A stretch of 64,000 nucleotides of DNA from Escherichia coli (GTDB lineage Bacteria; Pseudomonadota; Gammaproteobacteria; Enterobacterales; Enterobacteriaceae). The position numbers and the translations under genes were made by a program. Under the pieces are notes generated by a model. That model saw only the letters and a program-made list of their open reading frames with translations. It made no database searches and was not told the DNA's origin. Shown in pieces: positions 43,230-43,291 of this stretch (positions within the stretch are counted from its first letter, which is position 1; each line of letters starts with the position of its first letter). Location: the NCBI RefSeq assembly GCF_050920415.1, contig NZ_CP169309.1, one strand, 5' to 3'.

Positions 43230-43249
43230 GCTGTCAGTTCGTAAGTCAG

Positions 43250-43279
43250 AAAGCCGCCGACAAGTTCGGCGGTTTTTTT
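43250..43279 (+). terminator. intrinsic terminator of the nuo operon (partly bidirectional, shared with convergent yfbM)
   Basis: Hairpin CCGCCGA-CAAGT-TCGGCGG followed by T7; A-tract on the other side. Confidence 0.75.
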
Positions 43280-43291
43280 GTCATGACATCA

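Follow-up and report, generated by a model that had tools for sequence, protein, structure and literature searches.

The window, a stretch of 64,000 nucleotides from a genome labelled Escherichia coli, carries at its positions 43,230 to 43,291 the short gap in which the last gene of the nuo operon meets yfbM (Table 1). The nuoN gene ends with a TAA codon at 43227-43229, and the TGA stop codon of yfbM is read on the opposite strand from 43294 to 43292. As proposed in a first-pass annotation of this DNA, the ORF calls thus place the two genes in convergent orientation, 62 bp apart. Gene names are those of the RefSeq annotation of E. coli MFDS1022581, to which the tested stretches of the window are 99.99-100% identical. 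The NuoN protein is 100% identical to that of K-12, ATCC 8739, EC958 and O157:H7, at about 96% identity of the DNA. YfbM has 97% amino-acid identity to its K-12 counterpart, and its match to the DUF1877 family in Pfam covers the full length of the protein.

Table 1. Positions of genes and other features in the 64,000-nucleotide window.
Feature	Position	Strand	Basis or remark
naRNA4 (CssrE) family, REP/BIME-derived, two tandem copies	2072..2142; 2163..2233		Rfam
'nuoG RNA' motif, inside the nuo operon	32995..33037		Rfam
nuoL-nuoM spacer, about 225 bp	40008..40233		comparison with K-12
nuoN, terminal gene of the nuo (NADH:quinone oxidoreductase) operon	41772..43229	+	ORF; RefSeq annotation of MFDS1022581
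Convergent nuoN/yfbM intergenic gap, 62 bp	43230..43291		both stop codons flank it
Predicted intrinsic terminator hairpin (AAA, stem GCCGCCGA, loop CAAGT, stem TCGGCGG, T7)	43250..43279	+	fold and conservation
Perfect 8-nt palindrome GTCATGAC	43279..43286		directly 3' of the T-run
Unoccupied islet site	43281..43290		blastn breakpoints and junction sequences vs K-12
yfbM, DUF1877 family, 167 aa	43292..43795	-	ORF; Pfam PF08974 E = 6e-34; RefSeq annotation of MFDS1022581
yfbL (M28 family metallopeptidase), next conserved neighbour	43895..44869	-	Pfam Peptidase_M28 E = 4e-26; RefSeq annotation
yfbK deletion, between yfbL (43895-44869) and elaD (45306-46481)	45129..45148		20-bp non-homologous join
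elaD	45259..46481	-	frameshift near the 3' end

The junction had also been described as clean, and this holds: direct or inverted repeats were not found in window 43100-43450, including the short direct repeats suggested earlier for the junction, and there is no IS sequence between nuoN and yfbM. A scan of the whole window against Rfam gave no match to a structured RNA in the gap. With gene calls that take in the stop codons, the homologous gap measures 66 bp in ATCC 8739, EC958 and O157:H7, 68 bp in E. whittamii and 62 bp in E. albertii. The palindrome listed in Table 1 stands where other E. coli have a small GGTG...CACC inverted repeat, and the spacer of the window is 4 nt shorter.

The hairpin in the gap

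The gap contains one strong hairpin with a T-run. The A-run of the hairpin begins 20 nt past the nuoN stop, and the yfbM stop lies 12 nt past the T-run. The core stem pairs positions 43253-43260 with 43266-43273 (GCCGCCGA / TCGGCGGT) around the 5-nt loop CAAGT, through seven Watson-Crick pairs (CCGCCGA / TCGGCGG; six G-C and one A-U) and one G-U pair, and seven T occupy 43273-43279. The plus strand folds at -22.5 kcal/mol (z = -3.8), a value reached by none of 200 shuffled sequences. In an alignment of nine sequences from three species (E. coli including K-12, E. whittamii and E. albertii), neither stem arm nor the first five T of the run changes, but two loop positions do, as do the flanking spacers. 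Because the stem is without any variation, no covariation is possible. On the nuo strand we thus find each of the features used to recognise an intrinsic terminator, namely a G+C-rich stem (5 bp or more) closed by a loop of 3-8 nt, an uninterrupted U-tract directly 3' of it, the appropriate position and conservation. Judged by its sequence, the hairpin is a canonical intrinsic terminator of the nuo transcript and is predicted to cause termination in vivo. A consensus terminator scan did not have the hairpin at 43250-43279 among its calls, probably because its greedy stem extension had taken in A-T and G-T pairs and so consumed the T-run.

The first-pass annotation had regarded the hairpin as a terminator shared by the two genes. 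Bidirectional terminators between convergent genes have been described in E. coli transcriptome 3'-end studies, and a true bidirectional element, ending both the nuo and the yfbM transcript, would account for a hairpin placed between two convergent stop codons (20 nt and 12 nt away), for a stem that has AAA before it and T7 after it, and for the fact that minus-strand RNA makes the same 7-bp G+C stem. However, this minus-strand stem is followed on its 3' side by CTTTCT (CUUUCUGACUU), with at most three consecutive U, and the minus-strand fold of -19.5 kcal/mol is less exceptional (z = -2.1, with 5 of 200 shuffles as good). Furthermore, the same hairpin in K-12 faces yfbP instead of yfbM and so is not tied to yfbM; by this comparison it is assigned to nuo. 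Taken together, we consider bidirectional termination possible, at somewhat less than an even chance, and the hairpin would be only a weak terminator for the yfbM transcript, given its poor U-tract. What stands of the shared terminator is therefore the single hairpin with its T7 for nuo; the part that concerns yfbM is left with CUUUCU only.

Occupied and unoccupied states of the site

In K-12 MG1655, yfbM and nuoN are separated by 2,610 bp containing yfbN (-), yfbO (+) and yfbP (+). The MG1655 annotation and blastn agree with the first-pass annotation that these three genes lie between nuoN and yfbM in K-12 and are absent from the window. Homology to K-12 runs up to 43280, just past the T-run, and restarts at 43291, immediately next to the yfbM stop codon, and the ten bases in between (43281-43290) correspond to 2,558 bp (yfbP-yfbO-yfbN) in K-12. 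Comparison of the junctions indicates that K-12 retains the hairpin but has lost the short spacer that other strains have directly after it. No scar or remnant of the islet was found in window 43281-43290.

The islet of K-12 does not have the appearance of a classical mobile island or of an IS-mediated rearrangement, and we rejected both: its annotation contains no IS, transposase, integrase or tRNA target, no terminal inverted repeats were found at its ends, and no direct repeats or target-site duplications bound it, the pairs that were found being short and all internal. At 39.7% GC the islet lies below nuoN (57%) and the window as a whole (51.7%). A low GC content (35-46%) is, however, also found in yfbM, yfbL and elaD next to it, so composition by itself does not single out the islet.

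We surveyed 5,426 complete E. coli genomes with a 1,071-bp query spanning the junction, and found the contiguous, window-type arrangement of nuoN and yfbM in 4,309 of them (79%; the collection is biased towards many K-12 laboratory derivatives and clinical clones, and such percentages are not population frequencies). Any sequence of the K-12 islet was present in 1,015 genomes, with at least 80% coverage in 946 and at least 99% identity in 985, and many of the islet carriers listed are K-12 laboratory derivatives. A variant islet, recognised by a cassette labelled SMI1/KNR4, was found in 14 genomes, and among the rest, approximately 100 genomes, are cases of IS insertion and of larger deletion, TUM17668 being one example. 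The contiguous state occurs in ATCC 8739, EC958, E2348/69, O157:H7 and the non-O157 serotypes O103 and O111:H8. Among these, we take ATCC 8739 to represent phylogroup A, EC958 and E2348/69 phylogroup B2, and O157:H7 phylogroup E. Strain-level variation in gene content, as suggested from the sequence of the window, is thus borne out by the counts of all three states, and yfbN, yfbO and yfbP are accessory genes, which fewer than one in five complete E. coli genomes possess. The segment shows presence/absence polymorphism between conserved flanks at one exact site (breakpoints 43280/43291), as expected of an accessory islet. The high identity in 985 of the 1,015 genomes points to one recent, shallow and nearly clonal origin of the K-12 islet.

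The variant islet comprises one gene resembling yfbO, another resembling yfbN and a third, of 190 aa, labelled SMI1/KNR4 by PGAP (locus L007, 1603-3719; locus L005, 6505-7602), and is approximately 85% identical to the K-12 islet over the shared part. Outside the 14 E. coli genomes, its SMI1/KNR4-labelled cassette occurs in Escherichia sp. MOD1-EC7003 (L005), a species-level lineage distinct from E. coli, where it adjoins yfbM. The left junction of the variant islet in L007 retains ATGGT, the first bases of the spacer, as would be expected from insertion into the spacer. By these comparisons the islet family is older than the K-12 clade, and recombination may have swapped its presence or absence on more than one occasion.

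A scan of one genome per species for relatives of YfbM returned four Escherichia loci. In E. whittamii, and likewise in the divergent E. coli-labelled genome SCPM-O-B-8794 from the species-representative collection, yfbM is followed directly by nuoN. The contig of the E. albertii type strain ends 14 nt past yfbM, and complete E. albertii genomes were reached by an exact-protein look-up of YfbM, identified as such by DNA that is 99.4% identical to the type-strain contig. In five of six E. albertii places yfbM is directly followed by nuoN, with the gap of 62 bp. The sixth place (L018 5505-6278, CH991859.1) has an IS200/IS605-type Y1 transposase inside the nuoN–yfbM gap, and by this example the gap tolerates other insertions too. 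In summary, the islet is absent at the homologous site of E. whittamii and E. albertii, the exceptions to an empty site being the variant islet of MOD1-EC7003 and the one E. albertii IS. The spacer from the T-run to the yfbM stop, TGGTGCCCTGACACCA in E. coli, is recognisable in E. whittamii and partly so in E. albertii.

Among the islet proteins, Pfam gave sub-threshold UBA-like hits for YfbN, sub-threshold TPR hits for YfbP and no match for YfbO, and the SMI1/KNR4 label of the variant cassette corresponds to 19 bits in Pfam vs a cut-off of 25.4 bits. The PADLOC defence models matched neither YfbN, YfbO and YfbP nor the variant-cassette gene. With Pfam hits sub-threshold or nil and PADLOC without a match, we make no claim of an immunity or defence role for the islet genes. 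A literature search returned no paper devoted to the nuoN–yfbM junction or to the islet as such. According to a 2025 preprint, K-12 becomes resistant to phage N4 when yfbO or yfbL is knocked out, and supplying the gene in trans complements the knock-outs; other papers mention yfbN, yfbO or yfbP in passing only.

Lineage of the strain and variation around the junction

The nuoN DNA of the window is 96.0-96.2% identical to that of A, B2 and E strains, which are 97.8-99.3% identical to one another, with the protein unchanged (100%). Matches of at least 99% to the window were found in just one to two of the 5,426 complete genomes, the best being MFDS1022581, isolated from an animal-source food in Korea. 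By these identities the strain is a member of a deep-branching lineage labelled E. coli.

The 64-kb window is approximately 96-96.7% identical to K-12, except for the yfbM-yfbL segment (43291-45128) at 89.5%. The yfbL alleles within Escherichia fall into very different classes with identities of 80-94%. The divergence of yfbM-yfbL suggests old allelic lineages or recombination beside the variable site. We also considered import of yfbM from E. albertii, since the contig scan gave 98% identity, but rejected it: over the full length the identity is 97.6% at the amino-acid level and just 91.9% at the DNA level, which is no closer than to E. coli.

Beyond yfbL, the window has lost yfbK, which encodes 575 aa in K-12; leftovers of the gene flank the join, approximately 132 bp from the 5' end and 40 bp from the 3' end. 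The window-type yfbL-elaD junction is contiguous in 2,579 of the 5,426 E. coli genomes, and the yfbK deletion is thus a common polymorphism. In E. albertii, yfbK is present and elaD is absent. The elaD frame of the window encodes 391 aa vs 403 aa in K-12, with the last approximately 17 residues in another frame, and RefSeq marks the gene as a pseudogene in MFDS1022581. Further away, the nuoL-nuoM spacer is essentially non-homologous to the REP-containing spacer of approximately 160 bp in K-12. Rfam placed a 'nuoG RNA' motif inside the nuo operon, as expected for enterobacteria, and the alignment to K-12 overlaps itself at the two naRNA4 copies, which suggests that their number differs from that in K-12.

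History of the junction and comparison with known systems

The reading that we favour is that the window displays the ancestral, unoccupied convergent junction of nuoN and yfbM, and we are confident that its lineage never had the islet. The nuo transcript would end at the conserved Rho-independent terminator approximately 20 nt past the nuoN stop, and yfbM, running in the opposite direction, would stop 12 nt beyond the T-run. A minority E. coli lineage that includes K-12 would then have gained the low-GC islet of 2.56 kb (yfbP-yfbO-yfbN) between the T-run and the yfbM stop, where it took the place of a spacer of approximately 15 bp. The gain most likely occurred by horizontal transfer, and the islet would then have been disseminated by homologous recombination within the core genes on either side; with neither mobility genes nor repeats at hand, acquisition followed by recombination in the flanks is the likeliest route. 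The direction of change follows from parsimony and from the homology of the spacer. Independent precise deletions would not recreate a shared spacer, which argues that the empty state was inherited and is ancestral for the genus, and it is very probable on these grounds that the K-12 islet is a lineage-restricted gain.

A different view would be that the gap is an old recombination hotspot at which alternative cassettes (empty, yfbP-O-N, and yfbO-N with the SMI1/KNR4-like gene) have been traded between Escherichia lineages through homologous recombination in the flanks, so that neither state is simply ancestral in E. coli. Three states do occur at exactly one site, the variant islet is shared by E. 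coli and Escherichia sp. MOD1-EC7003, the same gap contains the IS200/IS605-type transposase in one E. albertii genome, and the identity of 89.5% in the yfbM-yfbL flank, compared with approximately 96% elsewhere in the window, would be expected beside a segment exchanged by recombination. Nevertheless, apart from the near-clonal K-12 type the occupied states are rare, with the SMI1/KNR4-type variant in 14 genomes, and the sampled outgroups are mostly empty. We consider this view rather unlikely, perhaps a one-in-several prospect, and it would alter the history of the islet only, leaving the reading of the window as unoccupied unchanged.

A more far-reaching idea, which we regard as improbable, is that the spacer of approximately 15 bp is a preferred entry point for small cassettes of uncharacterised genes (yfbN/O/P, an SMI1/KNR4-like gene) without mobility genes that are swapped among Escherichia species, and that the content of the cassette matters for phage susceptibility, in view of the N4 result of the preprint on yfbO and yfbL. 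If this were true, the 79% of E. coli naturally without yfbO, this strain among them, would differ systematically in their sensitivity to N4-type phages. More modestly, should the yfbO result of the preprint hold, strains that naturally do without the islet could differ in phage host range partly for that reason.

Lastly, a loss from the window, as implied by the first-pass annotation, would mean that its lineage once had yfbN-yfbO-yfbP and then underwent a precise deletion; the K-12 reference does carry the genes, and the nearby yfbK is truly deleted with both gene ends remaining, so that deletions do happen in this neighbourhood, but this reading is largely refuted already and strikes us as extremely improbable, as neither an islet remnant at 43281-43290 nor repeats able to mediate precise excision were found, the spacer of the window is homologous to the empty sites of other E. 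coli, E. whittamii and E. albertii, and the lineage of the window branches outside the main phylogroups while the K-12 islet is nearly clonal. Adjacency of nuoN and yfbM is the state of the majority (4,309/5,426) and of the outgroups, and it is K-12 and its relatives that would have gained the 2.56-kb islet. The first-pass annotation had itself named a common or ancestral adjacency in reference genomes as the outcome that would leave nothing remarkable here, and the comparisons bear out both. The arrangement, initially singled out as worthy of remark, is thus both common and in all likelihood ancestral: the junction is an ordinary configuration and an already known kind of pan-genome variation. 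K-12 is not an ancestral template, and genes that are 'missing' relative to K-12 are often gains of the K-12 lineage.

With regard to known systems, the K-12 islet (b2273-b2275) is a strain-specific accessory segment at the same site, with the nuoN terminator on one side and the yfbM stop on the other, and unlike classical genomic islands it is without integrase, tRNA, IS or terminal repeats. None of it is present in the window, and the outgroup species and 79% of the complete E. coli genomes do without it as well. The hairpin resembles bidirectional terminators in being a single structure between convergent stops, with an A-run upstream and a T-run downstream, but differs from them in that the A-run of the window is just 3 nt long, which results in a poor U-tract on the minus strand. 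There is closer agreement with the known nuo terminator of E. coli, with its G+C-rich stem of 7-8 bp, 5-nt loop, T7 and location approximately 20 nt past the stop codon. With one loop substitution (CAAGT for CATGT) and 4 nt less of spacer following the T-run, the window differs from that terminator in nothing substantial, and the sequence of its stem is that of K-12 and of other Escherichia.
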